Below, piece after piece: positions 863 through 30,347 of a stretch of 64,000 nt of DNA (position 1 is its first letter; the number at the start of each line of letters is the position of its first letter). This DNA is from a virus. The stretch spans positions 32,001 through 96,000 of IMG/VR virus record IMGVR_UViG_3300047462_000154, one strand, 5' to 3'. Both the position numbers and the translations under genes were made by a program. The notes under the pieces were generated by a model. It was not told where the DNA came from. It made no database searches and saw only the letters and a program-made list of their open reading frames with translations.

Positions 863-1135
863 ATGTTTGTATTCACATTTCCAAAATTAATTTACTATAG
901 TGATGTTTTTCATTTTTATGAAATCAATGAAAAACATGCACATGATAATTTCAGAATACTATTTGAAAAACAATATGAGTTTTTAAATGATAATGGCATC
1001 TATTATGAATTATTTACTAATGAAACCAAAGATGATAGAGATATTGTGCTCTTTTACAAATTAAGTATTGTAATATACGATGAAACAGAAGCCGTATTGT
1101 ACAAATTGATGTTTGGGGAAGACCATCAAAGATAA
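863..1135 (+). CDS. Hypothetical protein, same short family (..DETEAVLYKLMF)
   Basis: 90-aa ORF, TAAATG-coupled to the previous gene. Confidence 0.6.
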   Translation: MFVFTFPKLIYYSDVFHFYEINEKHAHDNFRILFEKQYEFLNDNGIYYELFTNETKDDRDIVLFYKLSIVIYDETEAVLYKLMFGEDHQR

Positions 1136-1668
1136 GTCCATTTTCCGTTAATATCCATCATTGCAATATTTTCTTTATTAATTAAAAGTGGCACATCATG
1201 TTCGCAAATTATTTCACCTTCACGTCTTGCATATTTTAAATAATTCTGATTATCTTTTTTTGTTTGTGGTGGCAAATATTTGTAAATGCTTGCGATATCT
1301 AATATCATATTCAATTTGCTTGAAGGCATTTTAATAACAATACCACCATCAGAAAAATCTTCCGCAATATATGAATAATAAGTCCATGATGCTAATTTTG
1401 GCATTTTTAATATAATGGTTTCATTATTAAGAAGTTTTTCTTCCCATGCTTTATCAGAAGCATCCAATGCATTTGGCGAAATGCCTCTATAAAGCATGAT
1501 TGTATCTGTTCTAATAAATCGCATTGCTTCGTTTTTTACAGAAAGGATTTTCTGTTCAATTCGTTCTCTTGGAATTACCAATCCCCAACCTTTAATCCAA
1601 GATTTCGCTGCTGCTAAAAGTTTTGCTGAAGGAATTAAATTTTCTTGAATGATTTCATATAAACGCAT
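1126..1668 (-). CDS. ADP-ribosyltransferase-fold protein (R-S-E class) with MRLYEIIQE leader; putative virion-packaged effector
   Basis: LYRGIS ... LASWT..YIAEDF ... RREGEII matches the R / S-x-T / E-x-E motifs. ATAAATA lies 5 nt upstream. Confidence 0.65.
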   Translation of the reverse strand: MRLYEIIQENLIPSAKLLAAAKSWIKGWGLVIPRERIEQKILSVKNEAMRFIRTDTIMLYRGISPNALDASDKAWEEKLLNNETIILKMPKLASWTYYSYIAEDFSDGGIVIKMPSSKLNMILDIASIYKYLPPQTKKDNQNYLKYARREGEIICEHDVPLLINKENIAMMDINGKWTYL

Positions 1669-1746
1669 GAATATATTTATGTGAGGGCTTTATTATATAA
1701 ATTGAGATACTGCTTTCGTTAAAAGAACATTTGTTGTCGATTGTTT

Positions 1747-2130
1747 TTAATCCATTTTTTTGATTAATGTAACCTGACGTTTGCGAACACGTTTTGCAAT
1801 AGTTTCTTGTAATGAAACCATTGGTGGTCCACTAATTATTTCAAAATCTTTTCTTGAAAAATGTTTCAAACATATTCTAAATGGTCTAAATTTATCTTTT
1901 AAAAATATATTTATTGGAATTTGTCTGTTACTTCCCCACCACCATTCATCACCACATTTCAAAAATTCTTTTCTGGCAAGTCCTGCTGGAAGAACATCCA
2001 AAACATACATGGAAATCAATTGAGTATCACTGTTTTGAATTATTCCCAAATATTCTTTGTCAAGAAGTTTTGCGAATGTCAAAAACGGGAATTTTTCTAA
2101 TATTTCAATTATTTGTTGTGGATTCATCAA
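1747..2130 (-). CDS. Hypothetical phage protein
   Basis: 127-aa ORF with globular composition (EWWWGSNRQIPINIFL). Confidence 0.7.
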   Translation of the reverse strand: MMNPQQIIEILEKFPFLTFAKLLDKEYLGIIQNSDTQLISMYVLDVLPAGLARKEFLKCGDEWWWGSNRQIPINIFLKDKFRPFRICLKHFSRKDFEIISGPPMVSLQETIAKRVRKRQVTLIKKMD

Positions 2131-2132
2131 TT

Positions 2133-2510
2133 CTATTTAGTTTTTTGAAAATCAGTATTTATCCTTTTCTCTTTAATTGGTTGATAATATTGCTTTGTTT
2201 TATATAATTTTACTATTTTTGTTGATTCAACATTAATTTTTGACGTTTTTGCCTTCAAAATATTGTTCAAAAACCTTTTGTAACCAGCGCGATAATATCT
2301 TGCATCAATAATAAAATCATCTTTTGCAAGCATTGTTGAACAAATTATTTCTAATTCATTCAATTCATCATGAGATAATTGAATTTTTGCAATTCTATCA
2401 TTTCTTACTGCTAAGATTTTTTTATGAATTTTATAACAAACAACATCAGGATTTTCATCCCAATGTTTTCGAATTGTTTCTGGAATGGTAATAATCATAA
2501 ACAATCTCAT
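2133..2510 (-). CDS. Hypothetical protein (start may be 2498)
   Basis: 125-aa ORF coupled to the next gene; TTGACT -35-like box upstream. Confidence 0.55.
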   Translation of the reverse strand: MRLFMIITIPETIRKHWDENPDVVCYKIHKKILAVRNDRIAKIQLSHDELNELEIICSTMLAKDDFIIDARYYRAGYKRFLNNILKAKTSKINVESTKIVKLYKTKQYYQPIKEKRINTDFQKTK

Positions 2511-2550
2511 ATCACATTCAAATCATTAGTCAACGGCAATAAATAACAAT

Positions 2551-3684
2551 ATGCCCTTAAATTTATTCAACACCCCCCAAGTTGTAATTTTAACAAGACC
2601 CGAAAGCGGAAACTTATCAGGACCAATTTTAATGAATTATACAATAAATCGCTCTAATTTTAAAATCGTTCAAGGAATAACAAACACCTTGGAAGTGTTT
2701 ATTCAAGATGTGGACCATCAAGTTTCAATGATTAACACTTCAGCCACAGGAAGCGCAACATTCACTGGCACAACAGGAACAGATGTGCCAGCAGGAACCA
2801 TTGTAAGCACGTCTGATGGCATGCAATTTACTACCCAAACAGACTTCCTTATTGGCACTACAACTGGTTCTGTGACCATCCAGGCAGTTTCTACTGGTCC
2901 ATTATCTTATTCATCTGGTTCTGTATTAACCACAACCATTTCAGGCGTCACAGCAACGCTTACATCAGCGATTTCTGGTGGAAATACAGCTACAATTAAT
3001 TTCAATGTTGTTGACCCAAAATATCAATCACAAGTTTATGCATCTTGTGAAGGAAATTATCCAAATCCATATGATAATAGTGTTTTGTTATTATCAAGAC
3101 AAATGGTTGTCAAAGATATTACTCGTTCATTATATACAGTAACTTTTTTACCATCTGATATTATCGACTGGGATATTGGGGATTATCAATATTCCGTAAC
3201 AATCACTAATTCTGATTCAACAATTACTATTTTATATACTGATTTAGATTATTCGCCATATGGTGTTTTAACTTTAACATATGGACCATTTCCAGTTCCA
3301 GCACCAGTGCAAACATTTGACCCAAGCACATGGAATATTTCAAATTATTTTTCTTATAGTTCACCATTGGTTGGTTCCGCACAATTTGGTTATCCGCAAG
3401 GTTCACAAACTTTTGTTTTTTATTGTACAAATTATACAGGTGTTGTGAACATATATGGAAGTTTAAGTTCAAATCCAAATCCTACACAAATGGAAGATTG
3501 GTTTATTATCACACAACCATATTTTACAAATGTAAATGGTCCACAACAAGTTACTGTTAATGGAAATTATTTGTGGTTAATGGTTCAATTACCAGTATTC
3601 CAAATTGGTTTTTATCCAAATATGCCAAATACTGTACCACCTTATGTGATGGGAAGTATTACGAGTGTTACATATAAAAATTAA
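2551..3684 (+). CDS. Virion structural protein with an internal baseplate-J-like segment
   Basis: T/S/N-rich beta protein after ATAAATA. Internal ATGSATFTGTTGTDVPAGT...AVSTG...ISGG pattern. Confidence 0.65.
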   Translation: MPLNLFNTPQVVILTRPESGNLSGPILMNYTINRSNFKIVQGITNTLEVFIQDVDHQVSMINTSATGSATFTGTTGTDVPAGTIVSTSDGMQFTTQTDFLIGTTTGSVTIQAVSTGPLSYSSGSVLTTTISGVTATLTSAISGGNTATINFNVVDPKYQSQVYASCEGNYPNPYDNSVLLLSRQMVVKDITRSLYTVTFLPSDIIDWDIGDYQYSVTITNSDSTITILYTDLDYSPYGVLTLTYGPFPVPAPVQTFDPSTWNISNYFSYSSPLVGSAQFGYPQGSQTFVFYCTNYTGVVNIYGSLSSNPNPTQMEDWFIITQPYFTNVNGPQQVTVNGNYLWLMVQLPVFQIGFYPNMPNTVPPYVMGSITSVTYKN

Positions 3685-9162: not shown

Positions 9163-9903
9163 ATGTTTGAGTTTATTGCAAATTTATCAGAAAGTTTGTT
9201 GTTTTCATCCAAAACAGCAGTTGAAAGTTATAAAGAAAAAGAATTAGCAGAAATTGCTTATCTTTCAATTATAACTTTGCGCATTCTTTTGTGGAGCGAT
9301 GAATTTAAAGATGTGGCTAAATCCTATTGTAAGAGAACCACACACGGCTCTGATTTTGAATCTTGGCGCACAGATGCCACAGATTTATATGCAGCCATGT
9401 ATGGGCTTGTAAACGATTCTGACCGCTATGAATTATGTTCCAAAAAAGTTTGGTTATGGTTGCATAAAGCATCACAAGGACATTTAAGTCACAACAAATC
9501 AGATGAGTTATTTGTTAAATTGGATTACTATTTTCATATCAATAACGAATCCATGCGCGCTGTTAGAAGATTGGCTATGGAATTCTATAAACTTAATAGA
9601 ACAGAACAAAAACTATGTATTACAAGATTAATTCAATTATTACGTCATAGAGCATTAAAATCAGAATTGTTCAAAGAATTAAAAGAATATGCATCAACTC
9701 ATAATTACGAAATCAAAGACGCAAATGACCCAGAAAATAAACCAAATATTCTAAAAGGGTTTCATGAAAACGCTTCTGCTGGTGCTACAAGTGCTGCATC
9801 GATTGCAAGCGTTGCTGGTGGTCTTGGGGCAGGGTTTGATAATGATTATTCAAAATCTGTATATGGAAAACAAAAACCAATTGTAATTAGAAGAAATCCA
9901 TGA
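9163..9903 (+). CDS. Putative head-associated protein
   Basis: 246 aa; C-terminal E|NASAGATSAASIAS motif; late-gene context. Confidence 0.55.
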   Translation: MFEFIANLSESLLFSSKTAVESYKEKELAEIAYLSIITLRILLWSDEFKDVAKSYCKRTTHGSDFESWRTDATDLYAAMYGLVNDSDRYELCSKKVWLWLHKASQGHLSHNKSDELFVKLDYYFHINNESMRAVRRLAMEFYKLNRTEQKLCITRLIQLLRHRALKSELFKELKEYASTHNYEIKDANDPENKPNILKGFHENASAGATSAASIASVAGGLGAGFDNDYSKSVYGKQKPIVIRRNP

Positions 9904-10316
9904 AATTATCTGATATATTAGAAAGCAAAATCATAACTGAATCATATAATGAACCATATAGTATTAAATTATATGAATATTCTACGGAAGCTACTGTTAG
10001 ATTTAATATGAATGATATCAAACAAGAAAAAGAAGATAATTTGAGAGAAAGTATTAATTTAATAAGAGATACATATAGAAATAAAAATATTGATGAAGAA
10101 ACAAGAAAACAAATATTTGAAATGATATCTGATGTTTATTATGATAGACAAGGAACAGTTGATAACAAGTATCAAGAAGATTTAAATAAAATTGCACATG
10201 CTTTTTATGTTCTTTTAGAAACAAAACTACAAGAATATATTGTTGTAAAAAACGAACATTTCAACATAAAACTGCAAGAATTGCAACAACAAATCAAAGA
10301 AAAATTTGGTGTTTAA
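9900..10316 (+). CDS. Hypothetical protein with MKLSDILES leader
   Basis: 138-aa ORF carrying the shared leader motif. Confidence 0.65.
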   Translation: MKLSDILESKIITESYNEPYSIKLYEYSTEATVRFNMNDIKQEKEDNLRESINLIRDTYRNKNIDEETRKQIFEMISDVYYDRQGTVDNKYQEDLNKIAHAFYVLLETKLQEYIVVKNEHFNIKLQELQQQIKEKFGV

Positions 10317-11438
10317 ATGGACGTTGTAAAAACCGTTCCAGTAAGACTAATTGATGATTACGAAATACATCTAGCAACCGCATTTCAAGAAATAGTGAAT
10401 TTAGGTTTAGAAGCATTTCCATCAAAAGGAAAAGGTACAGATTTAGCAAAATATAAAATATTCAAAAAATCACTTATCAAATATTCAAATTATCCATTTG
10501 TCAAACCAATCATGCAAAAAGTTAAAGAATGGGATATTGAATTAATTGATATTTTTCAAGCGAAAAGACATGCTTTAACAAAAAATCAAGAAATACTCAA
10601 AATGTCTGCTAATCTAACAAATCTTTTCTTATCAGGTAATATTGATTCCGCATATGAATACGCAAAATCAATCGAAAATACGGTAGCAAATAATAAAAAA
10701 AGAAATTATGATGTTAATTCTTACATTGGTAAAAAACACAATCCATTACATATAGAAAATCCTTTGTTCTTCGGAAGATATGGTTTATTAAACCAATTTG
10801 AAAAAGATGATATGATTGATATAAAAAATAAAAACCTTAATGAATATAAATGGACATATTTGTCTTTGCCAGAAAATAAAATGAGTGATTTTGAATATAT
10901 TGTTCATTGGATTCAAGAATTAAAAAACAATCCAAATCCAGTAGAATTATCTCCTGGATTATATAACAAATATTCTGAATTTACATATTCTTCATCAGAA
11001 TTTGAAGAATTGAAAAAAACATTAGAACAATATTTGCATGGAAATAACAAAAATCTTATTCCAAAAATTATTGAATTGTTGAATAAAATTCCAGATTTAA
11101 ATCAAACCAATGAAGACCAAAAAGAAAAAATAACAGAAGTGTATCGTGGGATTGCCATTGAAGAAGGGACAACAAAAAAAAATATTGTAGAACAAGAAAA
11201 ACGCAACAAATTTGTTGCAACATCTAAAAGACGTTATACAGCGAAGAAATTCGCATTTCGTCTTGGACATTTGGAAAGTATGGAAAATAGACGTTCTGAT
11301 TATGGAGCAATTATAACATATGAAACAACACCAGATTCTATTTTAATTGATACAAGTATTCTTGGCGGAGTTTTTGGTGAATCAGAAGTTATTATTGATG
11401 TATCAAAAGCAAAAATTAAAGATATAGATTTCGTATAA
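10317..11438 (+). CDS. Protein with C-terminal ADP-ribosyltransferase fold (R-S-E class)
   Basis: VYRGIA ... VATSKRRYTAKKFA ... FGESEVII. Confidence 0.65.
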   Translation: MDVVKTVPVRLIDDYEIHLATAFQEIVNLGLEAFPSKGKGTDLAKYKIFKKSLIKYSNYPFVKPIMQKVKEWDIELIDIFQAKRHALTKNQEILKMSANLTNLFLSGNIDSAYEYAKSIENTVANNKKRNYDVNSYIGKKHNPLHIENPLFFGRYGLLNQFEKDDMIDIKNKNLNEYKWTYLSLPENKMSDFEYIVHWIQELKNNPNPVELSPGLYNKYSEFTYSSSEFEELKKTLEQYLHGNNKNLIPKIIELLNKIPDLNQTNEDQKEKITEVYRGIAIEEGTTKKNIVEQEKRNKFVATSKRRYTAKKFAFRLGHLESMENRRSDYGAIITYETTPDSILIDTSILGGVFGESEVIIDVSKAKIKDIDFV

Positions 11439-11446
11439 ATATTTAA

Positions 11447-12730
11447 ATGAAATATATAGAAATTTTAGAATCGCGTTTAGACGAAATTGATGTTGGTCAT
11501 ATTGAACATGGTGATGCAGACAAATATTACGGATATAGTTTAAACGGAAAACTTCATACATATCCAAAAAATTCTGATAGTTATGAACAAGATATGAAAA
11601 AAGATTGGCGCGGCGGTAATGGTAACGATAATCCAATATTCAAACAGGATTATTCAAAAGCAATATCAACACCATCTCATTTTGTTGTTGATAATAGAAA
11701 CAAAGCAGTTAATTTAAATGTTGATATAACAAGTGAATTTCAATCCAGAAGAGAAAATAAAAAAATAGATTCATATAATCAAGAAGGCAATAAAGATTTT
11801 TATCCCATAATTGACCACAATGTTTCATTTAAAAAAACAATTGATTTAATAAAAAATTTAAAAGCACTTGTAAAAATTGATTCAAAAACACTTGATTATC
11901 ATGTAATAGGTGATGATAGAATTCCAAAAAATACAACAGTTAGAGATATCATTTCAAATAATGTTTCATTAGATAAACATACAGATTTGTATGATTCAAA
12001 TAAAGATTTCATCATAACATATCATGGCACTTCAATGAAACGTGCCAGTATTATTTTGAAACAAGGTTTAATACCATCAAAAAGACAAGAACAATATGGA
12101 GATTTGTTAGATGATTATAGCGAACATAATGTTTATTTGACTTTGGAACCAAATGAAGCAGCCAATTATGCAACTCGTGAAGCCATTAATGATGGTTCTA
12201 ACCCAGTTATTTTAAAAGTGTTGGTAAAGAAAACAGATTTTTCAAAATTAAGACCTGATGAAGATGCGATGAGTTGGTTTGACTATTTGGACAAAAATAT
12301 ATTAGCTAAGTTTTTTGAAAGAAATCCAATTTTAAAAGATTTGGAATTAAATTTTCATATCGGTCATCTTGACAAAAAAAATAAATTGGTAGATATTCAT
12401 TATAAATTAGAACCAAATATGTATCATCCAAAAGCACATATTGAAGCCAAAAAAATATTCAAAAAATATGGTTTGACTACACCAGAAAAAATTCAAGCAG
12501 AAGAACATAAATTATATAATGATTTAATGCAGACATTTGTTTCTGGTTCGTTTAATAAAAGTTTTAAAGAGAATGGCACTTTTGCCTATAAAGGAGTTAT
12601 TTTGCCAAAATTTATTTCAATGTTTAAAACATGGAAAATTAAGGGTTCTAAATTTAGCTCAAAAAATTCTAATGATTATTTAAACGCTTATAATAAACAA
12701 CAAGCAACAAAACAATATTTCGATAAATAA
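11447..12730 (+). CDS. ADP-ribosyltransferase-fold protein (H-Y class) with MKYIEILES leader
   Basis: TYHGTS..ASIILKQGL, NVYLT..AANYA, PVILKV and AYKGVILPKFI. TATAAATA at 11434-11441. Confidence 0.65.
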   Translation: MKYIEILESRLDEIDVGHIEHGDADKYYGYSLNGKLHTYPKNSDSYEQDMKKDWRGGNGNDNPIFKQDYSKAISTPSHFVVDNRNKAVNLNVDITSEFQSRRENKKIDSYNQEGNKDFYPIIDHNVSFKKTIDLIKNLKALVKIDSKTLDYHVIGDDRIPKNTTVRDIISNNVSLDKHTDLYDSNKDFIITYHGTSMKRASIILKQGLIPSKRQEQYGDLLDDYSEHNVYLTLEPNEAANYATREAINDGSNPVILKVLVKKTDFSKLRPDEDAMSWFDYLDKNILAKFFERNPILKDLELNFHIGHLDKKNKLVDIHYKLEPNMYHPKAHIEAKKIFKKYGLTTPEKIQAEEHKLYNDLMQTFVSGSFNKSFKENGTFAYKGVILPKFISMFKTWKIKGSKFSSKNSNDYLNAYNKQQATKQYFDK

Positions 12731-12735
12731 ATCAC

Positions 12736-12777
12736 ATGTTATTAAAAGAAATTTTTGAATTATCAATGAAGCATTGA
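12736..12777 (+). pseudogene. Leader-only remnant MLLKEIFELSMKH*
   Basis: ATAAATA at 12723-12729, then the leader motif, then a stop after 13 codons. Confidence 0.45.
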
Positions 12778-12936
12778 ATGTCGAAATGACCGCAAATCGT
12801 TTCGGTCGCCCGTTGAAAGTGAAATTGTTTTAAATAATGCATCAATATCTACCTTTGTAGATATTTCATTAAATTCATACTTCTTATAATTTGTTTGAAA
12901 CTTGTCTAAACACTTTGATAGATTATCTATTTTCAT
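12763..12936 (-). CDS. Small hypothetical protein (57 aa, MKIDNLSKCL...), not in ORF track
   Basis: Translated by hand; fills the gap downstream of 12968-13393. Confidence 0.35.
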   Translation of the reverse strand: MKIDNLSKCLDKFQTNYKKYEFNEISTKVDIDALFKTISLSTGDRNDLRSFRHSMLH

Positions 12937-14025: not shown

Positions 14026-14184
14026 GTGAAAATATCTGAAATGTTTGGTGATTCTTTTTCTCACAAAAAGATTGTTTGGAAAAAACGTGGTGATAATATC
14101 GAACGTTGTGAAGTAGAAATTGCGCCAGTATTTAATTCAAATTTAAATACAAAAATTGAAATACAGGATAAAGAACAATCATGA
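14026..14184 (+). CDS. Small protein with MKISEMF leader (52 aa, GTG start), not in ORF track
   Basis: AAGGA RBS, CTAAATA upstream, ATGA overlap with 14181. Confidence 0.6.
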   Translation: MKISEMFGDSFSHKKIVWKKRGDNIERCEVEIAPVFNSNLNTKIEIQDKEQS

Positions 14185-15293
14185 GCACATATTTGGAAAA
14201 ATTAGCTAAATTACTTAACATCAAAGGTGATGAAGCAGAAAAACTTCTTGATGCTTCAGATATTTCTGAATTAGTTTCTTTGACTGTTGCTGTTAATAAT
14301 AATGACAAACAAGCTGGTTTAGATATAATGCATAAAATTGAAGGTAAAACTAATTTTTTTATTGGTGAACCAGTTAATGTAAATGGCGAAAAAGCAACAG
14401 TAATTGAACCAGATGCTCCTGGTAATACAATGAAAATATCTAAAGGTGGAGTTCCAGAAATGGTTGATAAAAAAGATGTGGAAAAAATTGAAGAAGCCGT
14501 TGGATTTAAATTGAAATGGCGTATTAATGAAAAACCAACTGGTCAATATCGGTCTTTTGCAAAACGTCAATTTCCTGGTGCTGACTATCCAAATGGAAAA
14601 ATTGCCGTGGCTATTAGATGTGAGGATTCATATGTTCCAGCAAATGTAAAATCTGGTGAACATAAACCATTAGATGTTTTGATTGCAGATTGGAATAATG
14701 AAACCACAGATGGTAGACCAACATTTAGATGGCGAAAACTCAAAAAGCAATTTGCTACATTAGGCGAAGCAAAAACTGCTGCCACTGAATTTCTTGCAAA
14801 ACATCCTGAATTTCATCCAAAAGACGAACCAAAGAAAATTGAAGAAGGTGTAATTGGCATGACTTCAATTCCTGGAATTGATAGAATGAAAGTATTGGCT
14901 GGCATTAAACCACAAGGTTCTGTTGGTCCTGGTGAAACTAATGACCCCAATAATTCTCAAAACAGTAATGCAACAAATGTTAATTCAAATTCTCCAAATA
15001 CTCAACAACAAGAAGTTCCAAATAATGAGAGGGATTTGCCAAATGATATTGGTAAATTGAAAGATATGATTTTAAAAAACAATGAAAATGTTAAAGAGGA
15101 AGTTCAATATATTAGTTTACAAATTGCTGAACAAGATGTTTGTGAAGTTTGTTTGAATGCGATTGAAACATTAGAAAATAATATTGATGAATTAAAAGTT
15201 GGTGATTTATCTGAAGTTCGTTCAAGACTATTGAAATTGTATAATCATTTAAATGAATCGGTTTCTTTTACTGGCAGACAAAAGAAAGTATAA
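14181..15293 (+). CDS. Putative head/internal polyprotein with an inserted module between two KIEE sites
   Basis: KIEE|AVG...KIEE|GVI; DRMKVLAGIK motif; HLNES near the C-terminus. Confidence 0.6.
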   Translation: MSTYLEKLAKLLNIKGDEAEKLLDASDISELVSLTVAVNNNDKQAGLDIMHKIEGKTNFFIGEPVNVNGEKATVIEPDAPGNTMKISKGGVPEMVDKKDVEKIEEAVGFKLKWRINEKPTGQYRSFAKRQFPGADYPNGKIAVAIRCEDSYVPANVKSGEHKPLDVLIADWNNETTDGRPTFRWRKLKKQFATLGEAKTAATEFLAKHPEFHPKDEPKKIEEGVIGMTSIPGIDRMKVLAGIKPQGSVGPGETNDPNNSQNSNATNVNSNSPNTQQQEVPNNERDLPNDIGKLKDMILKNNENVKEEVQYISLQIAEQDVCEVCLNAIETLENNIDELKVGDLSEVRSRLLKLYNHLNESVSFTGRQKKV

Positions 15294-15643
15294 TGGAATC
15301 AATTGGTATTGATATGTTTGATGCAATTAACTGGTTACAGGATGAATATGGTTATATTCGTCATGTAGCTGAGAAGATAATTGTTGAATCTATTAAAACT
15401 GGAAAAATTATTATATCTGAGAATGGTGTTTATTTGACTGAATCTGACGAAGAATTTGAAGAAAATAGCAAAGGTTTAGCGCACAATATTTCTAGAAAAT
15501 ATTCAAGAACTCAATTTAGAAATCACAATCGAATAAAAAGTGCAAGAAAAATGGCTAATAAAATGTCAAGTAATAATAATGGTGATGAAGCTGCTGATAA
15601 TATGTTAAGACCTATTATTGAAGATGATGAGACTGATAAATGA
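15293..15643 (+). CDS. Hypothetical protein (head region)
   Basis: 116-aa coupled ORF. Confidence 0.6.
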   Translation: MESIGIDMFDAINWLQDEYGYIRHVAEKIIVESIKTGKIIISENGVYLTESDEEFEENSKGLAHNISRKYSRTQFRNHNRIKSARKMANKMSSNNNGDEAADNMLRPIIEDDETDK

Positions 15644-15870
15644 GATATTTAGAAATTGCATCTGGCATTAGAACCATTGTAAACATGGAAGAACAAGAAA
15701 TTATTGATGGTGCAAAAAATGGCATTATTACTGGTTTTAATTCTTGTGATGAACGCAAAAAAGAAATTATTAGGAAAATGATTGAAAAAAATATTTTAAC
15801 TTTGCATAAGCTTAATGGTAAGAAGGTAATTGCTGTAAATTCAGTAAATGATATTTGGAGAGACAGATGA
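15640..15870 (+). CDS. Hypothetical protein with MRYLEI leader
   Basis: 76-aa coupled ORF. Confidence 0.6.
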   Translation: MRYLEIASGIRTIVNMEEQEIIDGAKNGIITGFNSCDERKKEIIRKMIEKNILTLHKLNGKKVIAVNSVNDIWRDR

Positions 15871-16439
15871 GTAATATTTCAGAGATGGCGCGATTAATGG
15901 ACATTATGAATGGTAAGAAAACTTCTGCTGTTTCTGGTAATGTTGATGCTAAAACTGATTCTATGAAGAAGATTTTAGAAGCATTTTATGGTATGAGTGC
16001 GAATGCTGTTGAGACTGCCAAAGAGATTAAAGAAGTAAGAGAAGCGTATTTGACAGAAGAAACTGCGACTGGCGTTAAGATTGCTAATTGGTATATTGAT
16101 TGTTCTAAACAAAGTAATTTAAAAACTTATAGTATTCGTGAAGAATATTCTAGTTCTTATTTGGTTCATGATTTGGTTTTATATGAAGCGGCTTATGGTT
16201 TAGTTAAATTATTATTGGCAAATGAGGGTTTAGAATCCAATAATGTGAATATGATTTTGAAATTAGAATCAGATTATTCGAAATTTTTAAATGATGCTAT
16301 TAATTATAAACACATGTTATCAAGCAAAAATTTAAATGAGTCTAAACGCGCTATTTTGGAAGACAGATATGAATCTGCAAAATATTCTGCGGTTGCTGCA
16401 AAAAATCGTATAATGCAATTGTATAATGAAAAAATGTAA
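15855..16439 (+). CDS. Hypothetical head-region protein (likely start 15867)
   Basis: Helical; MKKILE and YLTEE motifs; GGAG RBS before ATG 15867. Confidence 0.65.
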   Translation: MERQMSNISEMARLMDIMNGKKTSAVSGNVDAKTDSMKKILEAFYGMSANAVETAKEIKEVREAYLTEETATGVKIANWYIDCSKQSNLKTYSIREEYSSSYLVHDLVLYEAAYGLVKLLLANEGLESNNVNMILKLESDYSKFLNDAINYKHMLSSKNLNESKRAILEDRYESAKYSAVAAKNRIMQLYNEKM

Positions 16440-16569
16440 ATCTTGTAAGACACCAGAAACTTGTGAAAAACAGGAAAAATGTGAAAAAATTAAATTTAAA
16501 GAATCTTTAAAAAATCCAGTAATTTGCAAAAAAGAAATTTGTGATTGTGGAAAGCAGGATTGCAAGTAA
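16426..16569 (+). CDS. 47-aa Cys/Lys-rich microprotein (8 Cys), not in ORF track
   Basis: MKKCKSCKTPETCEKQEKCEKIKFKESLKNPVICKKEICDCGKQDCK; overlaps the upstream stop and fills the gap. Confidence 0.55.
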   Translation: MKKCKSCKTPETCEKQEKCEKIKFKESLKNPVICKKEICDCGKQDCK

Positions 16570-16611
16570 AATCTTATAAAGAATAAATACCTGAAAATGG
16601 ATTAATTCTTT

Positions 16612-17724
16612 ATGGCTCAACTACATTTAAATTTAGGAACAACTGGTTCAAATAGTGGTGGTGATTCTTTACCTGTTATATTAACCAAAACAGAATCAAA
16701 TTTTATTGAATTATATGACCATGTTGCAAATTTAAATAATCCACATCAAGTTACTGCTGCACAAATAAATTTGGGCGCATACAATGTGATTGCCGCGTTG
16801 GGATATGTTCCTGCAAATGGTGGCGCATATAATGGTTCGATTAGTACAGCAAATCTTGGAAATATAACTTTAACTTTAACTGGTAGCGTTACTGGTGGAG
16901 CAACAAGTTCGGATGGTGTTTTATCTGTTCCGACAACTTTAATTCTTATGTCAAGTGATGTGACAAATGCTCTTGGTTACATCCCTTCAACACCAGTAAC
17001 CACAACACCAGGAACCTACAATACACTTGTGATTAATGGTGCTGGACAAGTTGTTTCTGCTTCAAACACGTCTTCTGGTTCTGGTGGCGGAATTAGTAAT
17101 ATAAATTTGACTTTAACTGGTTCTGTAAATGGTTCTGCATCAAGTGCAAGTGGCACATTATCATTGGCTACTACAGTATCATTGTCATCTTCTGATATTT
17201 CAAATGCGCTTGGTTATATTCCTTCTGCTCCTGTAAATACTACTGCTGGAACGTATAATAAGGTAGTAATAAATAATTCTGGACAAGTTGTTTCCGCTTC
17301 GAATTCTGGTGGAAGTTCTGGACCATTGATTTTCACTAATAATTCGTTAAGTTCCGTTAATAGTACATCTTCTGGTACTGTTGCTTCAGCTTCAATAACT
17401 TTGCAACCAGCGGCAATTTATTCATATATGTTAATAGGAAATTATTATACATCTTCTACATTGGGGGGTTCTGGAACTGGAGGAAATCCAAATTTTTATA
17501 TAACTGATAGTGGATTTGTATCAACTATTACAAATAAAATTTTTTCATCAAATCCATATGCAAGTTATTTAGGTGGTGGTAGTGGTCCAGGTAATGGAAA
17601 TGCTTTTGCATTATTATCTTTTACAAATCCAACAAGTTCTCCAGTAGTTGCGACTTTTAACGTAACCCAAACGGCTTCTGGATTTATAAACGCAAATATT
17701 CTTGCTGTTCCTATATCACATTAA
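16612..17724 (+). CDS. Baseplate/fibre protein with gp9/gp10-like N-terminal attachment motif and fibre repeats
   Basis: LGTTGSNSGGDSL...TKTESNFIELY; HVANLNNPHQVT; ALGYIPS..GTYN repeats shared with the 33.8-42 kb fibres. Confidence 0.7.
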   Translation: MAQLHLNLGTTGSNSGGDSLPVILTKTESNFIELYDHVANLNNPHQVTAAQINLGAYNVIAALGYVPANGGAYNGSISTANLGNITLTLTGSVTGGATSSDGVLSVPTTLILMSSDVTNALGYIPSTPVTTTPGTYNTLVINGAGQVVSASNTSSGSGGGISNINLTLTGSVNGSASSASGTLSLATTVSLSSSDISNALGYIPSAPVNTTAGTYNKVVINNSGQVVSASNSGGSSGPLIFTNNSLSSVNSTSSGTVASASITLQPAAIYSYMLIGNYYTSSTLGGSGTGGNPNFYITDSGFVSTITNKIFSSNPYASYLGGGSGPGNGNAFALLSFTNPTSSPVVATFNVTQTASGFINANILAVPISH

Positions 17725-17735
17725 TAAATAGAATT

Positions 17736-17987
17736 ATGAATAAAACCGATAATGCAATTAATAAATTCAATCATTTGCTTGAATCTAAATATGGTCTTTC
17801 CATAAATAATTCATCAATTGATGATTTGAATTTTATTTTTGAATATTATACCGAACAAAGAAATAATTATTCATCAGATGATGTGAGATATAAAAAAGCT
17901 TTTTTAATAAGTGAAGTTGCACGTTTGATGATTTTAAAAGAAATTATGCCTAAACCAAAAGGCAAAAAGAAAAGAGGAAGTCAATGA
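17736..17987 (+). CDS. Hypothetical protein (late)
   Basis: 83 aa; ATAAATA upstream. Confidence 0.6.
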   Translation: MNKTDNAINKFNHLLESKYGLSINNSSIDDLNFIFEYYTEQRNNYSSDDVRYKKAFLISEVARLMILKEIMPKPKGKKKRGSQ

Positions 17988-19918
17988 AGAAAATCGTTTT
18001 GTGGGAATCAAGTGAATTAGAGCAAGCTGAAGTTGTTTTGGCTGCAAAATCAATTTCAGAAAAACTTCAAAGTATGGCTGAAAATGTTGCCAAAATTGAA
18101 GTTAATGATTTGATGCCATTAGGAGATACATTACGTCTCGCTTTTGGTGAACAAATGGCTGATAGTTTTAATAAAACAACATCAGAACAATTAAGACAAT
18201 TATTGCAATATGTATCAACTGCAAAAGTGCAAATTGATAATCAAATTCTTCGTTTTGAAAATATCGTAAATGGTAATCCAGATGCAGGCAATGATATGGC
18301 AATGAATACTGGTGTTGATGCCAATGCTCCACCTAATGATATGCAAGACGGCGTTGATGTAAATGAACCAAAAGATAGCGCACCAGAACAAGGTTCTGAT
18401 GATGGCATGTTTGCTCCAGAAGATAATGCTGATGGTGGTGAGCCTGAACCAGAACAGCAAGCGCCACTTCCGCCAGAAGGCAGAGCGAGAAAAGAATCAT
18501 TTGTTTATTTGGATAAAGTGATTTTGGAATCATTCAAAAGAATGTTGAAAGAAAAAGTAAATCCAACTCGTGCTGTAAAATATATTTCTGAAAGACATGG
18601 TGTAGAATTATCTGAAGTTGTTAATATTATCAAAGAAGCCAAATCTGTAAATGAAGCAGTTCATGTCAGTGGCAAAAAATCAAAAATGACAAGAAACGAA
18701 GCTTTGAAAAAAGATGATGGTTTTTATGTAGAAAAAGATGATGGAAAAATTGGTGATAATATGTGGCACGTTTTTGGTGACCAAACTGGTTTTTCATATG
18801 GGCATTTTAATTCGAAAACAGAAGCAAGAACCTTATTTGATGAATTGAAAGCGAATTTAAAAAAAAAAGTAAATGAAGTAGATAAATCAAAACAAACAAG
18901 TTTTGATTCTGATATGAATGTTTTTAGAAATAAGGGTTTAACGCCACAGCAAAGAACATATGCAATGGCATGCTTAAAAGGCGGTGATTCCCATGATGCC
19001 GCTGCAAAAAAATCATTGAAAAAATATCCAAATGCAGATAAAAAAACTAATGAATCAAACGATAGTTTAATTGCTGGAAAATCATTAGGAATGGGTAATT
19101 CAACATTTGGATTATTAAATGTTGGAGATAAATTTCATTGGAGAGATTCTGAAGAAATTTATACAAAACATTCAAAAGATTCTTACAAAGATTCAAAAGG
19201 AAAAATTTTTAAAACTGGTAACGGCGCGAGTGTTTTCAAAGAAAAAACTAATGAAAAAGATAATCATTGGATAGAAAAAGCAACTACCAAAAATCCAGGT
19301 AAGTTTGCTGCCAAAGCTAAAGCTGCTGGAGAAACAACGGCTGAATATGCTGATGAAAAAGAAAATGCAAAAGGTGTTCTTGGTAAAGAAGCAAGATTAG
19401 CAAAAACTTTAAGTAAAGAACGCAAAAAAGTTAATGAAAGTTTTGCTATTGGTGATGAAGTAAAAACTACCATGGGTGTTAAAAGAACTGGAAAAGTTAT
19501 CAAACCATTTGATTATAAAAAAGCTACTGACGGCACTTATAGAGAACCATACGCAAAAGATAAAGTTGTTTATGTTGAATGGGATGATGGAACAAAAGGG
19601 TGGTCTCATGAAATTCATCTTGAAAAAACAAAAAAAAAAGAATATGATGGTTCAACACCAATGCCCACTTTTGCCGAAAGAAAGAAAGCATTTTCTCAAG
19701 ATTTTGGATTTGTTTATAAACAATCAGAAGATGGTATATGGGGATGTTATGGACAACAAACTGGTTATTGTTATGCAACAGGTACAGAAGATGAAGCCAA
19801 ACTTGTAGCAGATAAACTTTTTGATATTAAAAAACATCCAGAAGAAAATATGGAAATGCCAGCAAATATTCAAAAAGAATCTGTTAAAAACAAACGCGGA
19901 ATTAAATTGGACAAATAA
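17984..19918 (+). CDS. Prohead core/scaffold-like polyprotein with a string of modules separated by K-x-N-E sites
   Basis: N-terminal coiled coil (EQAEVVLAAK), acidic P-rich linker, then KSVNE/KKVNE/KKTNE/EKTNE/KKVNE-delimited modules. Confidence 0.6.
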   Translation: MKKIVLWESSELEQAEVVLAAKSISEKLQSMAENVAKIEVNDLMPLGDTLRLAFGEQMADSFNKTTSEQLRQLLQYVSTAKVQIDNQILRFENIVNGNPDAGNDMAMNTGVDANAPPNDMQDGVDVNEPKDSAPEQGSDDGMFAPEDNADGGEPEPEQQAPLPPEGRARKESFVYLDKVILESFKRMLKEKVNPTRAVKYISERHGVELSEVVNIIKEAKSVNEAVHVSGKKSKMTRNEALKKDDGFYVEKDDGKIGDNMWHVFGDQTGFSYGHFNSKTEARTLFDELKANLKKKVNEVDKSKQTSFDSDMNVFRNKGLTPQQRTYAMACLKGGDSHDAAAKKSLKKYPNADKKTNESNDSLIAGKSLGMGNSTFGLLNVGDKFHWRDSEEIYTKHSKDSYKDSKGKIFKTGNGASVFKEKTNEKDNHWIEKATTKNPGKFAAKAKAAGETTAEYADEKENAKGVLGKEARLAKTLSKERKKVNESFAIGDEVKTTMGVKRTGKVIKPFDYKKATDGTYREPYAKDKVVYVEWDDGTKGWSHEIHLEKTKKKEYDGSTPMPTFAERKKAFSQDFGFVYKQSEDGIWGCYGQQTGYCYATGTEDEAKLVADKLFDIKKHPEENMEMPANIQKESVKNKRGIKLDK

Positions 19919-19919
19919 A

Positions 19920-20261
19920 ATGCTACTTTTTGAATTGTTTTCAGACAATGATTTAACAACAAATTTAAAACAAGCAGCGTTGGATTATCTAACGCCGCTT
20001 GTTGCTCATAATGTTCCTTATGTAACTATTCAAAGTATGGTTGATGAATTGCGTAAATTGAATTCTGGTTTGACAATTGATAGAGCATTTATAATGAATT
20101 TATTAAATGACGTTCAAGTTGTTTCACAAATTCAAGGGGATAGAATTTATATTTCTAAACCAGATAATGAAAAAGATGAAGATGAAAAAGAAGGCGAAGA
20201 TAATATTCAAAGAGTTAAAGACGCTGCTATAAAACAAGCCAAAGAAAACATTAAAAAATAA
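19920..20261 (+). CDS. Hypothetical protein with MLLFELF leader (start reassigned from 19821)
   Basis: ATG 1 nt after the upstream stop; 113 aa. Confidence 0.7.
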   Translation: MLLFELFSDNDLTTNLKQAALDYLTPLVAHNVPYVTIQSMVDELRKLNSGLTIDRAFIMNLLNDVQVVSQIQGDRIYISKPDNEKDEDEKEGEDNIQRVKDAAIKQAKENIKK

Positions 20262-25397: not shown

Positions 25398-25411
25398 AAG
25401 GATTAAATAAA

Positions 25412-26884: not shown

Positions 26885-27994
26885 TTGTTTTGCTTTAATT
26901 TGGATAATGAATTACGTCATACTTTTTTTGAAGGTGGTAGAGATATTCCCATGTCAGAAGAAGAACGTATTGCGATGCTTCGTGAAGGAATTCTCGGTGT
27001 TAAACCAAGCAATAATGGAATTTGGAAACATATTAATTCTAAAAAATTAGCATCAGAAATAAATCGCATGCATCGTAATGGTTCTTGGAAAACAAATGAT
27101 TTATGGAATTTTCAAGATTATGTAAAAGGCAGCGGAGGAATTAGCAGAGATTCTTCGATTGGTACAATTGGCGGCGGAAATCATTTCCAAGAACTGCAAT
27201 ATGTAGAAGAATGTATTGATAGAAAAACTTGTTATGATTGGGGAATTAAAAAAGGTTATGTGGCGATAATGGCACATACTGGTTCTGTTGATTTTGGAAG
27301 CAGTGTTGGTGGCTATTTTATGGATTTAGCCAAAGAAATATTTCCAAAAATTGAACATCCAGAACATGGTTTTTATCCTTTGCCTACTGTTGGAAAATTA
27401 AAAGATAATGGTATGAAATATTTGTCTGCAATGGGTTTGGCGGCGAATTTTTCAATTGTTAATCGTTTAATGCTTACAGAATTAACATTGCGTTGTTTAT
27501 CAAAAGTTTCTGGTAAAGAAATTACTGGTCATTTGGTATATGATGCGCCACACAATCTTGTTTGGAGTGATGCTGATTGTTGCACACATATACATCGAAA
27601 AGGCGCTACACCAGCAGAAAAATTTGATTGTGATGATGGATTTCCAAATGGTCATCCAGTAATCATTCCTGGTTCTATGGGCGATGCGAGTTATGTTTTA
27701 AAGGGCAATGGCTCACTTGCAAGTCTTTGCAGCGCACCGCATGGCGCAGGCAGAATAACGGCACGTGGAGAGGGCAGGAGAGGCGATATTAAAGAATTGG
27801 ATACTGTTAGGGTAATTACAAAAATGGACCCTAAAAAGGTTCGCAAAGACATTCGTGACGAATTGATTAAAAACTTAATGGAAGAAGCACCAAGCAATTA
27901 TAAAGATGTTATGCCAGCCATTGAAACGGTAAAAAATGCTGGTATTGCAGAACCAGTTGCGAAATTAATGCCATTGCTTACGGTGAAAGGATAA
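26885..27994 (+). CDS. rtcB: RtcB-family RNA ligase, N-terminally truncated
   Basis: GTIGGGNHFQE, AHTGS, APHN, HRKGAT, IPGSMG, SAPHGAGR and EEAPxxYK present. N-terminal D..H/DIGCG block absent; in-frame TGA at 26882. Confidence 0.85.
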   Translation: MFCFNLDNELRHTFFEGGRDIPMSEEERIAMLREGILGVKPSNNGIWKHINSKKLASEINRMHRNGSWKTNDLWNFQDYVKGSGGISRDSSIGTIGGGNHFQELQYVEECIDRKTCYDWGIKKGYVAIMAHTGSVDFGSSVGGYFMDLAKEIFPKIEHPEHGFYPLPTVGKLKDNGMKYLSAMGLAANFSIVNRLMLTELTLRCLSKVSGKEITGHLVYDAPHNLVWSDADCCTHIHRKGATPAEKFDCDDGFPNGHPVIIPGSMGDASYVLKGNGSLASLCSAPHGAGRITARGEGRRGDIKELDTVRVITKMDPKKVRKDIRDELIKNLMEEAPSNYKDVMPAIETVKNAGIAEPVAKLMPLLTVKG

Positions 27995-28058
27995 AAAAAT
28001 CTTGATTAAAATATTTTTATAATATAAATAGATTTCTCATTTCTTTGGAGTAAAAATT

Positions 28059-28232
28059 ATGAAAATCAAAACCATTAAGTTCGAAAACAATGTTGTTGCA
28101 ATTGAAACCGACGATAATAAATTTTCATTTTGCACTGAAAATCATTTGATGCTATTAAAAAGTGGTAGATATGTTAAAGCAAAATTTTTGAAAGAAAATG
28201 ATTTGCTTAACGATGAATTAGAAAACGTTTAA
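28059..28232 (+). CDS. 57-aa stand-alone partial Hint/intein-fold protein, not in ORF track
   Basis: MKIKTIKFENNVVAIETDDNKFSFCTENHLMLLKSGRYVKAKFLKENDLLNDELENV; block-B TxxH plus G.YV.A..L...D.L. GGAG RBS; TATAAATA at 28023-28030. Confidence 0.75.
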   Translation: MKIKTIKFENNVVAIETDDNKFSFCTENHLMLLKSGRYVKAKFLKENDLLNDELENV

Positions 28233-28247
28233 AATAATCGCGTTAAA

Positions 28248-29102
28248 TCACATAACATAAACTTTACCAATGGAAGCGCCAAGAAGATTTTCAATATCTT
28301 CTTCGGTGTTTTCTCTCATTGATACTAATTCAATATTAGCATCTTCTAAATTTGAACAACGATAATATTGTCCTTTATATCCTTTAAATATTGCAGGACA
28401 TGGATTAAATTTTATTGTTCCAGTAATTAAATATTGCGCAATTAATTCACAATAAAATTCAAAAAATGTTCTTAATTTTTTATCTCTTGCTGATTTGAAT
28501 GTTCCTATTTCTTGAACAAATTTTTTTAATGTTATAGGAATTTCTTCTGCATTTCTAAATAAAAAATAACTTGGTGGCTGATTTACAAAATTATGACCAA
28601 CATCAATTCTATATAATTTCATAATTTCTTTTAAATACATTTTAAAAGTTTTTGTAAATTTTTCAAATTCATAACTACCGTTAATTCCGCCTTTTCTATA
28701 CAATACATGTCCTAGCCTATGACCTAAAATCCAAGCTGTCATTGGCACGCGCTCTGAGCCTTTATTGTTTGTGAAAATAACATTGATTGCCTCTGGACTT
28801 AATAAATCATTAGAAGTTATTTTGCCTTCTTTGACCATTTCTTCATAAAATTTTGGCATATTTTCATAAAGCCAGTTTCTACCAACTTCCCCAACTTCGG
28901 TATGACGATTTGCTTCTGGTGAATTTACAAAATAAAAATTAAATGGAATGGTTGTATTCAACCATTGTTGTTTTATTTTTTCTTGTGCTTTTGGATTAGT
29001 TAATAATTTTCTATCTTGTTCTTTGTAAGAAGAATTTTTATTCCAGTTTCCATGTAGCGCAAAATCTTCGATTGGCGTTTCAAAAAGTTGTTTAATCAGC
29101 AT
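28248..29102 (-). CDS. Zincin-like protein with degenerate HRxxH motif and MLIKQLFE leader
   Basis: WILGHRLGHVL plus downstream EFYCELIAQYL helix. Confidence 0.55.
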   Translation of the reverse strand: MLIKQLFETPIEDFALHGNWNKNSSYKEQDRKLLTNPKAQEKIKQQWLNTTIPFNFYFVNSPEANRHTEVGEVGRNWLYENMPKFYEEMVKEGKITSNDLLSPEAINVIFTNNKGSERVPMTAWILGHRLGHVLYRKGGINGSYEFEKFTKTFKMYLKEIMKLYRIDVGHNFVNQPPSYFLFRNAEEIPITLKKFVQEIGTFKSARDKKLRTFFEFYCELIAQYLITGTIKFNPCPAIFKGYKGQYYRCSNLEDANIELVSMRENTEEDIENLLGASIGKVYVM

Positions 29103-29116
29103 TATAGAATCCTTGT

Positions 29117-29130
29117 GATAAATATTTATC
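29117..29130. promoter_or_regulatory. Palindromic bidirectional late promoter GATAAATATTTATC
   Basis: Perfect 14-bp palindrome giving ATAAATA on both strands, in a 30-bp gap between divergent genes. Confidence 0.65.
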
Positions 29131-29132
29131 TA

Positions 29133-30347
29133 ATGAACCTACAAGATATATTTTTAACTGAACAAAAAGTTTTGCCAAAGGTTTTTTACCATGGCACGCC
29201 TAACAAATTTGAGCATTTTGATTTAGATTTTATTGGTGCTAAAGAAGCAAAAGACCAAGATGGTCCTGGTTTTTATTTTACTGACAATATAGACACAGCA
29301 AGAGGATATGCTGGAAAAACTGGTGTTATTTTAAAATGTGAATTATTTCCAAGAAAAATTGTAAAATCTACTGGAAAAATAAATTTTAATATGGTAAATT
29401 TTATGATTAAAAATGCACCAGATTATCAATCCACATTAGAAAATTTCGATGAAAACCCAATCAAAGCTTTTAATGATGCAATTAGATTAATTGTAACACC
29501 AAATAATCCAAAACAAACGTTTGAACAAATTTGGTATGATTTTTATCGATATGAAGCAAAACAATGGGCAATAAACATGAGCAAATTTACTTATGATGCT
29601 GTTCTTGTAAACACACAAAATGGCGACACCCATATTATTATGTTAAATCCAGATAAGATAAAAATAATAGAACGTATTGCACCATTAAATGAAATAGAAC
29701 TTGGTGGTGGCGTATCATCAATTGATTTGGAAGATAAAAGAAATCTTGATTATAAAAATAAACAACAAGATTTGTTTCCAGAAATACCAACGATAGAACC
29801 AAACGTTCCAAGAGGTTATCAATATGTTGGTAACATGGGCGAATACGGAATTGTTAAGAAAAAAGACACTTATGACCATTATAATTATTATGGTAAAATT
29901 GAATCCACACATAATAGTTTTCAATATGTTTTCACGCATTTTGGTAAACCAATTGGTTATGTTTATGTTGTTGAAAATCCACCTATAGCTTCGCATTTGG
30001 AATTATCTGGAAAAGGATTATTGATCAAGCAAGTTTATATTGAAGAAGATGAACGTGGCAAAAATTTAGATTTAAAATTTTATTATTGGCTTTTGACACA
30101 TGTTTGTGATTATATTTTACCCGACACTACTCATACAGAAGAGGGTGCAAGATTATGGAGAAAATTGAATCAATCGAGATTGTTTGATATGTATGTGTAT
30201 GACCCAAGAACTGGAACGTCTCGTAAAAGATGGGCGGGAAAAGATTGGAATCAAATATATAATAACGATGATTTACAACCATTTCTTACATTAAAAGGTA
30301 GATATGTTGATTCAGATGAATATGAAAGCGAATTTGATGACAATTAA
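29133..30347 (+). CDS. Two-domain effector: ADP-ribosyltransferase fold (ART-PolyVal-like) plus GNAT-like domain, with MNLQDIFLTE leader (start reassigned from 29088)
   Basis: FYHGT, GPGFYFTD..ARGYA, YDAVL; linker APLNE; then IKQVYIEEDERGKNL..FY and T.EGARLWRKL. Confidence 0.65.
   Translation: MNLQDIFLTEQKVLPKVFYHGTPNKFEHFDLDFIGAKEAKDQDGPGFYFTDNIDTARGYAGKTGVILKCELFPRKIVKSTGKINFNMVNFMIKNAPDYQSTLENFDENPIKAFNDAIRLIVTPNNPKQTFEQIWYDFYRYEAKQWAINMSKFTYDAVLVNTQNGDTHIIMLNPDKIKIIERIAPLNEIELGGGVSSIDLEDKRNLDYKNKQQDLFPEIPTIEPNVPRGYQYVGNMGEYGIVKKKDTYDHYNYYGKIESTHNSFQYVFTHFGKPIGYVYVVENPPIASHLELSGKGLLIKQVYIEEDERGKNLDLKFYYWLLTHVCDYILPDTTHTEEGARLWRKLNQSRLFDMYVYDPRTGTSRKRWAGKDWNQIYNNDDLQPFLTLKGRYVDSDEYESEFDDN

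Follow-up and report, generated by a model that had tools for sequence, protein, structure and literature searches.

The stretch of DNA analysed here, referred to as the window, comprises bases 32001-96000 (64,000 nucleotides) of one 172,315-bp IMG/VR contig. Between window positions 1126 and 30347 it encodes a dispersed set of otherwise dissimilar proteins that begin with a similar short peptide of 8-10 residues, termed the tag or leader in what follows, and several of the genes stand close behind an ATAAATA late-promoter motif. The comparisons described below suggest that the tag is probably a head-loading propeptide of the type known as a capsid-targeting sequence (CTS) in bacteriophage T4. 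The tagged genes and the elements associated with them are listed here in window coordinates; ORF denotes an open reading frame and ART an ADP-ribosyltransferase.

1126-1668, reverse strand: tagged gene, 180 residues, MRLYEIIQE, with a body of no assigned function
1674-1680, reverse strand: ATAAATA late-promoter motif, separated by exactly 5 nt from the ATG of 1126-1668; leaderless mRNA predicted
9900-10316, forward strand: tagged gene, 138 residues, MKLSDILES; its start overlaps the upstream stop codon (ATGA) and it has no promoter of its own
11435-11441, forward strand: (T)ATAAATA motif, 5 nt before the ATG at 11447
11447-12730, forward strand: tagged gene, 427 residues, MKYIEILES, with an ART-superfamily body as judged by homologues
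12723-12777, forward strand: orphan unit consisting of ATAAATA, 6 nt, a 13-codon ORF (MLLKEIFELSMKH) followed by a stop codon, and a GACCG...CGGTC hairpin
14026-14184, forward strand: tagged gene, 52 residues, (M)KISEMF, with a GTG start and a Shine-Dalgarno site
15293-20261, forward strand: block syntenic with Atu_ph07 gp47-gp43, including a 644-residue protein at 17984-19918
15640-15870, forward strand: tagged gene, 76 residues, MRYLEIASG, homologue of Atu_ph07 gp46, which was detected in virions
19920-20261, forward strand: tagged gene, 113 residues, MLLFELFSD, phrog_15050 'virion structural protein', in the position of Atu_ph07 gp43
28248-29102, reverse strand: tagged gene, 284 residues, MLIKQLFE, with a body of no assigned function
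29117-29130, no strand assigned: perfect 14-bp palindrome GATAAATATTTATC, with ATAAATA on both strands
29133-30347, forward strand: tagged gene, 404 residues, MNLQDIFLTE, with an ART-PolyVal domain (residues 15-185) and a GNAT-like C-terminal domain (about 225-390)

The contig has a G+C content of about 30% and an estimated completeness of 39% of a genome (CheckV), and our own gene call placed 235 genes on it, covering 93% of its length. No close relative was found in the phage collection, where megablast and tblastn with the structural genes matched only distant jumbo phages. Protein matches were to jumbo myoviruses distantly related to T4, namely Agrobacterium phage Atu_ph07, Sinorhizobium phage Phosso, Salmonella phage Munch and Rak2-like phages. 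BLASTP gave matches in Atu_ph07 for 62 of the 235 genes, in long syntenic runs that include the genes for the portal, sheath, baseplate, helicase and a gp55-like sigma factor. Judged from these matches, the contig is a fragment of a giant-phage genome and kin of Atu_ph07.

All nine N-termini that a first-pass annotation of this DNA had grouped together read as claimed; eight of them open real genes, whereas the ninth, at 12736, belongs to a stub of 13 codons. Across the contig 22 genes were counted as tagged, with the consensus M, K/R, L/I/Y, x, E (D in five), I/L, F/L/I. A hydrophobic-x-Glu sequence ends at residue 5 in 16 of the 22 proteins, and 11 carry a Glu at position 8, 9 or 10. A pattern fitted to the leaders matched 20 of the 235 N-termini, plus two that fit more loosely, where 0.46 were expected from the frequency of the pattern inside proteins, and a simpler six-position pattern gave 21 matches against 0.98 expected. 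On pattern counts, 20-22 of 235 genes, about one in ten, carry the tag against 0.5-1 expected. In Atu_ph07 the six-position pattern marked 31 called N-termini where 4.5 were expected. Pectobacterium phage CBB, included as a negative control to test both the gene caller and the statistic, showed no enrichment with the same pattern and the same caller (3 versus 3.1 expected). The tagged genes are scattered over at least ten loci of the contig, and the tag is absent from the canonical shell, portal, sheath and baseplate proteins of both the contig phage and Atu_ph07. Moreover, the tag codons differ from gene to gene (Arg as AGA, CGT or CGG; Leu as CTT, TTA or CTA; Ile as ATA, ATT or ATC), and because the codons vary at conserved positions the selection is on the peptide.

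The published virion proteome of Atu_ph07, in which 131 of 714 gene products were detected in purified virions by electrospray ionization tandem mass spectrometry (PMC6102473, Table S5), allowed the tag to be compared with presence in the virion. The tag pattern was applied to the whole Atu_ph07 genome and each match was assigned its gp number from coordinates or from a molecular mass agreeing to two decimals. One of the 31 matches was a 30-codon ORF and was discarded. Among the remaining 30 tagged proteins, 24 are in the virion list (gp43, 46, 47, 53-63, 196, 199, 381, 408, 482, 483, 487, 548, 561 and 672), compared with 131 of 714 overall (Fisher's exact test, p = 7e-14, or p = 1.6e-7 if the gp53-63 array counts once). 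For tagged genes with K or R at position 2 the proportion is 23 of 25. The gp43-63 part of this comparison was not blind, since the pattern was widened to admit Trp at position 3 after those proteins had been seen. For the 14 matches located past 200 kb, selection preceded any look at the virion list. Eight of them proved to be on it, where the background for that genome region is ~12.5%, a result with a probability of about 1e-4 by our own binomial estimate. Presence of the tagged proteins in the virion is accordingly well supported, through this relative. Given that 24 of the 30 are virion proteins, the tag probably marks proteins that are carried with the phage DNA.

In Atu_ph07 the gene order gp47-46-45-44-43 corresponds to window positions 15293-20261, and gp43, gp46 and gp47 begin MRLIDLLES, MKFIDIVG and MRYKDLKLNE, respectively. 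The gp53-gp63 genes form a tandem array of 11 that start M-[KR]-W-x-Q-L-[TN]-E, a start that recurs in gp408 and gp482; in gp381 the tag is followed by V-Y-H-G-S, the start of an ART core; and gp199, a tagged virion protein of 77 residues, follows the portal gene. In addition, two large proteins of the tagged block, gp44 and gp53 (86-87 kDa), peak in gel bands that otherwise hold proteins of ~20 kDa or less, an abundance at low mass that fits proteolytic processing. The tag motif is not mentioned in the Atu_ph07 paper (PMC6102473), the literature searched contained nothing linking a capsid targeting sequence to Rak2-like or Atu_ph07-like phages, and the PA5oct paper has nothing on late promoters or propeptides. 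A separate observation concerns the annotation of Atu_ph07, where a 139-residue ORF with the same leader, starting MRIIDLEYAEDSF, lies at NC_042013.1 22449-22868 on the forward strand (locus L011), within a RefSeq annotation gap between gp026 and gp027. If this ORF was also missing from the authors' search database, its product could not have been detected by mass spectrometry.

The bodies behind the tag are unrelated, as the first-pass annotation had held. BLASTP of the 22 proteins past residue 12 found only one pair alike (adjacent genes, 32% identity), and the Pfam domains are distinct. The 404-residue protein scored 48.9 bits for ART-PolyVal (PF18760; cut-off 31.2), a tagged protein of 429 residues beyond the window scored 26.9 bits for the same family, which is under the cut-off, and also has a glucosaminidase domain, and a tagged protein of 167 residues has a NUDIX domain. 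The 427-residue protein itself gave only weak ART-superfamily leads in a protein atlas search; its homologues carry precomputed Pfam PARP or ART-PolyVal domains, and leader-like starts occur among them (MKVSEILYE, MLKFKQFIKE and MLLEELVLSE). In phages Munch and CBB the ART protein has homologues that begin MNLKELQES and MEMKKLMED. The AlphaFold2 model of the 404-residue protein has a mean predicted local distance difference test score of 75.6 and a confident C-terminal domain, for which the best PDB matches were all GNAT acetyltransferases, with E-values that are weak (around 1e-3) but consistent; Pfam at E <= 0.01 placed no family on this half of the protein. ART and GNAT bodies, both suggested earlier, are upheld by the Pfam and PDB matches. 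A zincin-like body, suggested at the same time, could not be confirmed, as no tagged protein contains an HExxH motif. The two small tagged proteins of 76 and 113 residues match PHROGs named 'virion structural protein'. No relatives of the 180-residue protein (1126-1668) were found in a word-indexed protein database, and a protein atlas search with the 284-residue protein (28248-29102) gave nothing.

Several lines of evidence bear on the relation between the tag and these domains. Pfam domains begin past the tag (ART-PolyVal at residue 15, NUDIX at residue 28), and in the model of the 404-residue protein leader residues 1-12 form a short, low-confidence helix that is unpacked and lies outside the ART fold. 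An exhaustive search returned 834 relatives of this protein and showed that its ART and GNAT-like halves each occur elsewhere as separate proteins, some of which sit directly behind a leader, as in MKLNEIFLNEVELGG and MRVIEITEALENSTLFYHG. In stand-alone GNAT-like members the leader often runs straight into the first motif of the domain, E-[IV]-E-L-G-G, while stand-alone ART members have either a similar leader or, in many cases, start directly at the [FY]-Y-H-G core. When nine ART members were aligned, the core started in one column; six of the nine have an N-terminal extension and three do not, and in the six extensions hydrophobic-x-Glu lines up at columns 9-11. On these alignments and domain boundaries, the tag is an add-on and not part of the domains. 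Among 58 viral loci encoding the ART family the tag was barely enriched (12 versus 6.7, with crude gene calls), and it is therefore specific to the lineage and travels independently of the ART domain. The GNAT-like C-terminal family (P0003-P0152), whose members start E-[IV]-E-L-G-G, is widespread in metagenomic proteins; its members are stand-alone genes of ~225 residues, many of them directly behind a leader. Separately, a single relative with 55% identity (P0002) was noted.

In the T4 record, the N-termini of IPIII, IPI, gp67, gp22 and gp24 read MKTYQEFIAE, MKTFKEFTST, MEGLIEAIKS, MLKEQLIAE and MAKINELLRE. The first ten residues of IPIII suffice for packaging, residues 4 and 7 being the main determinants of targeting and residues 8 and 10 those of processing, and the CTS has been seen as a possible evolutionary means for loading various proteins (PMC9026906). 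In T4, Alt is processed at ITE-6 and LTE-619, and every internal head protein attaches to the core via the CTS (PMC5694885), which is the only feature that the diverse defence proteins packaged by T-even phages have in common (PMC3012670). In the present tag positions 3, 6 and 7 are hydrophobic and Glu falls at 8-9, which reproduces the spacing of the T4 CTS one residue earlier. Indeed, patterns built on the shifted T4 rule were enriched among the contig N-termini (4 versus 0.69 and 7 versus 0.63), whereas the exact T4 register (M-x-x-hydrophobic...) was not (1 versus 0.68). The proposal of the first-pass annotation that this is a leader of the T4 capsid-targeting type thus gains support from the shifted pattern, from the unrelated domains that follow it and from the 24 of 30 tagged proteins in the Atu_ph07 virion list. 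A positional parallel is also seen: the contig's 80-residue tagged gene (MKLFELDQQD), a homologue of gp199, follows the portal gene, the place held in T4 by gene 67, likewise of 80 residues. The two proteins have no sequence similarity, so that the parallel is one of position and size only. As for the enzyme, the contig gave no match to PF03420 or to Atu_ph07 gp204 (it is 39% complete), and since it yielded no protease gene the processing enzyme has been deduced from relatives, gp21-family proteases being encoded by Atu_ph07 and CBB.

The likeness to the T4 system (IPI-III, Alt, gp67 and gp68) extends to a short N-terminal peptide common to otherwise unrelated, late-expressed proteins, to two hydrophobic residues three apart followed by hydrophobic-x-Glu, to its occurrence on an ADP-ribosyltransferase and on small core proteins encoded beside the portal gene, and to the presence of the tagged proteins in virions, known here only from the relative Atu_ph07. 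The differences lie in the register, which is one residue shorter (M-K-hydrophobic versus M-K-T-hydrophobic), in the amount of cargo, with at least 22 genes on 39% of a genome compared with about eight in T4, and in the promoters, which in approximately half of the tagged genes that have their own are fused directly to the ATG. The CTS of the T4 internal proteins was reportedly described by Mullaney and Black in 1996. At the T-even internal protein (IP) loci, Repoila et al. in 1994 (EMBO J) are said to have found variable ORFs that share a conserved leader, some with promoters just upstream, and flanked by ~70 bp of homologous DNA that was thought to drive shuffling. Those loci resemble the present ones in their variable ORFs with a conserved leader, some with a promoter, and have been read as arms-race cargo; they differ in that the flanks here share only a 7-nt motif and the genes occupy ten or more loci.

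Two further systems invite comparison. Giant phages related to phiKZ such as SPN3US also carry many proteins in the head, among them ejection and inner-body proteins, and have a gp21-related protease that cuts after Glu in a short motif (PMC5694885, PMC7411985). Their propeptides, however, vary and are long, cleavage is at A/S/G-x-E, a shared N-terminal tag of 8-10 residues has not been described, and the clade is unrelated and nucleus-forming. Head-packaged ART, Nudix and Macro effectors and polyvalent proteins likewise include ART-PolyVal and NUDIX domains in large myoviruses and have been predicted to be packed and injected (PMC9503650). In that work of the Aravind group the evidence for packaging is fusion to MuF or portal domains, or gene neighbourhood, whereas here separate genes carry a short address tag.

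The ATAAATA late motif and a gp55-like sigma factor have been reported for CBB and GAP32 (PMC5259590). On the present contig about 60 of 111 copies of ATAAATA are correctly oriented and no more than 40 nt upstream of a start, and TAAATA is found within 45 nt upstream of 12 of the 22 tagged genes but only 46 of the 213 others (p = 0.0015). Six of the leaders had earlier been credited with such a motif, and it was indeed found within 50 nt upstream of all six (1668, 11447, 12736, 14026, 29102 and 29133). The remaining tagged genes start inside operons, often overlapping the preceding stop codon. Spacing between ATAAATA and the start codon is bimodal: some genes have 17-30 nt, with a Shine-Dalgarno sequence in the gap, and others have exactly 5 nt and no such sequence. 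The 5-nt class comprises 12 genes, seven of them tagged, and three more tagged genes have the motif at 4 or 8 nt, so that ATAAATA stands 4-8 nt before the start in 10 of 22 tagged genes and 7 of 213 others. Copies of the 5-nt class in the window are at 1674-1680 (reverse strand), 2539-2545, 11435-11441 and 17724-17730, with more elsewhere on the contig.

The T4 late motif occupies positions -13 to -6 (PMC1524935). Because this rule, combined with a gap of 5 nt, would place the start of the transcript at the A of the ATG, leaderless late mRNAs are predicted for these genes. The conserved tag peptide confirms these ATG codons as the points where translation begins. In Atu_ph07 no such class (N5, for the 5-nt spacing) was found, all copies of ATAAATA except two standing at least 16 nt upstream of the start. 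Conserved flanking DNA of ~70 bp around the leader ORFs was also sought; nothing common was found past the 7-nt motif, and the mean pairwise identity of positions -70 to -13 was 0.32 in tagged genes and 0.31 in others. As the upstream DNA is no more alike than that of other genes, promoter and tag are associated but do not form a single mobile unit of DNA. The portable promoter-plus-leader cassette of the first-pass annotation consequently holds only at the level of the protein and is not supported as a unit of DNA, approximately half of the tagged genes having no ATAAATA of their own and the flanks not being homologous. A narrower proposal, that in this lineage promoter and tag have merged into a plug-in unit, ATAAATA-N5-ATG plus the tag codons, giving a leaderless late mRNA, is offered tentatively and is more doubtful than the role of the tag itself. 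If it were true, any domain placed behind ~45 bp would acquire late expression without a ribosome-binding site together with head loading, which would explain how dozens of unrelated packaged enzymes accumulated and would make the injected proteome of uncultured giant phages readable from sequence alone.

Taken together, the tag is probably a T4-type capsid-targeting propeptide that loads proteins into the head, a reading by analogy in which cleavage, core binding and ejection are steps that we infer. Synthesis would be timed to head assembly by the ATAAATA late promoters, read by the gp55-like sigma factor. During prohead assembly the tag would dock its protein on the scaffolding core, so that the domain behind it becomes enclosed in the head, and a protease of the gp21 family would then probably cut after the Glu of one or more hydrophobic-x-Glu sites in the tag. 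Once freed, the proteins would stay beside the DNA until infection, when they would exit the head. The putative cargo consists of ADP-ribosyltransferases, a GNAT-like acetyltransferase, a NUDIX hydrolase, a peptidoglycan hydrolase and small core proteins. Cleavage and injection, as distinct from virion presence, are plausible by analogy with T4.

Several points weigh against this interpretation. For every tagged protein in the clade, cleavage and injection have been inferred only; mass spectrometry shows presence in the virion and not position within it; six of the 30 tagged Atu_ph07 proteins went undetected in virions, four of these being without K or R at position 2; and several tagged proteins have no second Glu at positions 8-10. 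Moreover, protease, major capsid and terminase genes were not found on the contig (39% complete by CheckV), and the patterns were fitted post hoc, Trp at position 3 having been added after Atu_ph07 was inspected. Some of these points would also fit a tag that acts as an uncleaved address for virion assembly, anchoring structural proteins, and not injected effectors, to the portal, inner body or whiskers. Such a role would account for the proteins that have no second Glu and ask no more of the mass spectrometry than the virion presence it proves; several tagged proteins are indeed small and encoded among structural genes, and Atu_ph07 and the Rak2-like phages have unusual whiskers and many unassigned virion proteins (PMC6102473). 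However, ART, GNAT-like, NUDIX and peptidoglycan hydrolase bodies suit delivered enzymes better than building blocks, the tag holds a site of the T4 protease type, hydrophobic-x-Glu, at a fixed place, one tagged gene takes the place of the T4 core-protein gene 67, and bubblegram signals of a DNA-embedded internal protein have been seen in coliphages 121Q and phAPEC6 (PMC7247149). An uncleaved address is for these reasons considered unlikely.

Two other explanations were considered. The shared N-terminus might be an inert by-product of expression, with A/T-rich 5' codons favoured in late, often leaderless mRNAs; AAA is the most frequent second codon, and the excess of ATAAATA at 4-8 nt (10 of 22 versus 7 of 213) points the same way. 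Yet 12 tagged genes begin within operons and lack a promoter of this kind, six genes with the N5 spacing have no tag peptide, and codons vary while residue classes are kept. The peptide is, moreover, kept in Atu_ph07, which has no N5 class, and there it predicts virion presence. A by-product of this kind is thus very improbable. Alternatively, the tagged genes could be diverged paralogues of one ancestral gene, with the N-terminus as the last recognizable part, as the one pair at 32% identity, the Atu_ph07 gp53-63 array of 11 similarly tagged genes and the several ART-like bodies might suggest. Common descent fails to account for NUDIX, GNAT-like, glucosaminidase and ART bodies, which are different folds, or for a leader that is present or absent within the ART family while the core starts at the same aligned column, and it is the least probable of the explanations considered here.

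Other features of the window and contig deserve brief description. The orphan unit region (window 12723-12810) adjoins three reverse-strand genes, and the unit at 12736 is probably the stump of a tagged gene lost through rearrangement. The palindrome GATAAATATTTATC occupies most of the 30-bp gap that separates the divergent tagged genes 28248-29102 and 29133-30347, and looks like a bidirectional late promoter. The 644-residue virion protein at 17984-19918, the homologue of Atu_ph07 gp44, contains four K-x-[VT]-N-E motifs (residues 220, 294, 353 and 481), 60-130 residues apart, and [RQ]KES at residues 169 and 630; a search for related loci with this protein found nothing. The protein, whose homologue gp44 peaks in a low-mass gel band, is probably a polyprotein that the head protease cleaves. 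The portal homologue lies beyond the window, at contig positions 146906-151408 on the reverse strand (114906-119408 on the window scale), and has 1500 residues compared with 584 in Atu_ph07, to whose portal only its first 363 residues align. The gp55-like sigma homologue (window scale 76185-78008, reverse strand), homologous to Atu_ph07 sigma gp694, has 607 residues compared with 277, and both proteins may contain inteins or large insertions. Three tandem paralogues of ~370 residues at window 48857-52220 on the reverse strand, two beginning MAYLAYLDGGER and the third MSYFYYLDGGDQ, and six large genes at window 33857-46715 on the forward strand with N-termini that are alike (...NNGTLL, ...NNLT...), are each preceded by the late motif and are probably fibre or spike paralogues.

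The principle at work is already known as the T4 CTS concept (PMC9026906, PMC3012670), and the finding extends known biology and does not add a new kind. What is added here is the comparison of the tag with a published virion proteome, together with the ATAAATA-N5-ATG class of genes for which leaderless late mRNAs are predicted. Should the tag function as it does in T4, sequence alone would be enough to list what this lineage carries into the cell, even for uncultured phages; several ADP-ribosyltransferases, an acetyltransferase-like domain, a NUDIX hydrolase and a cell-wall hydrolase would be on the list here. Such a function would also account for most of the ~100 unassigned virion proteins of Atu_ph07 and offer a short tag with which foreign proteins could be loaded into the heads of giant phages in laboratory strains, and the T4 loading mechanism would be of much greater age and wider use than one would gather from the T-even phages.

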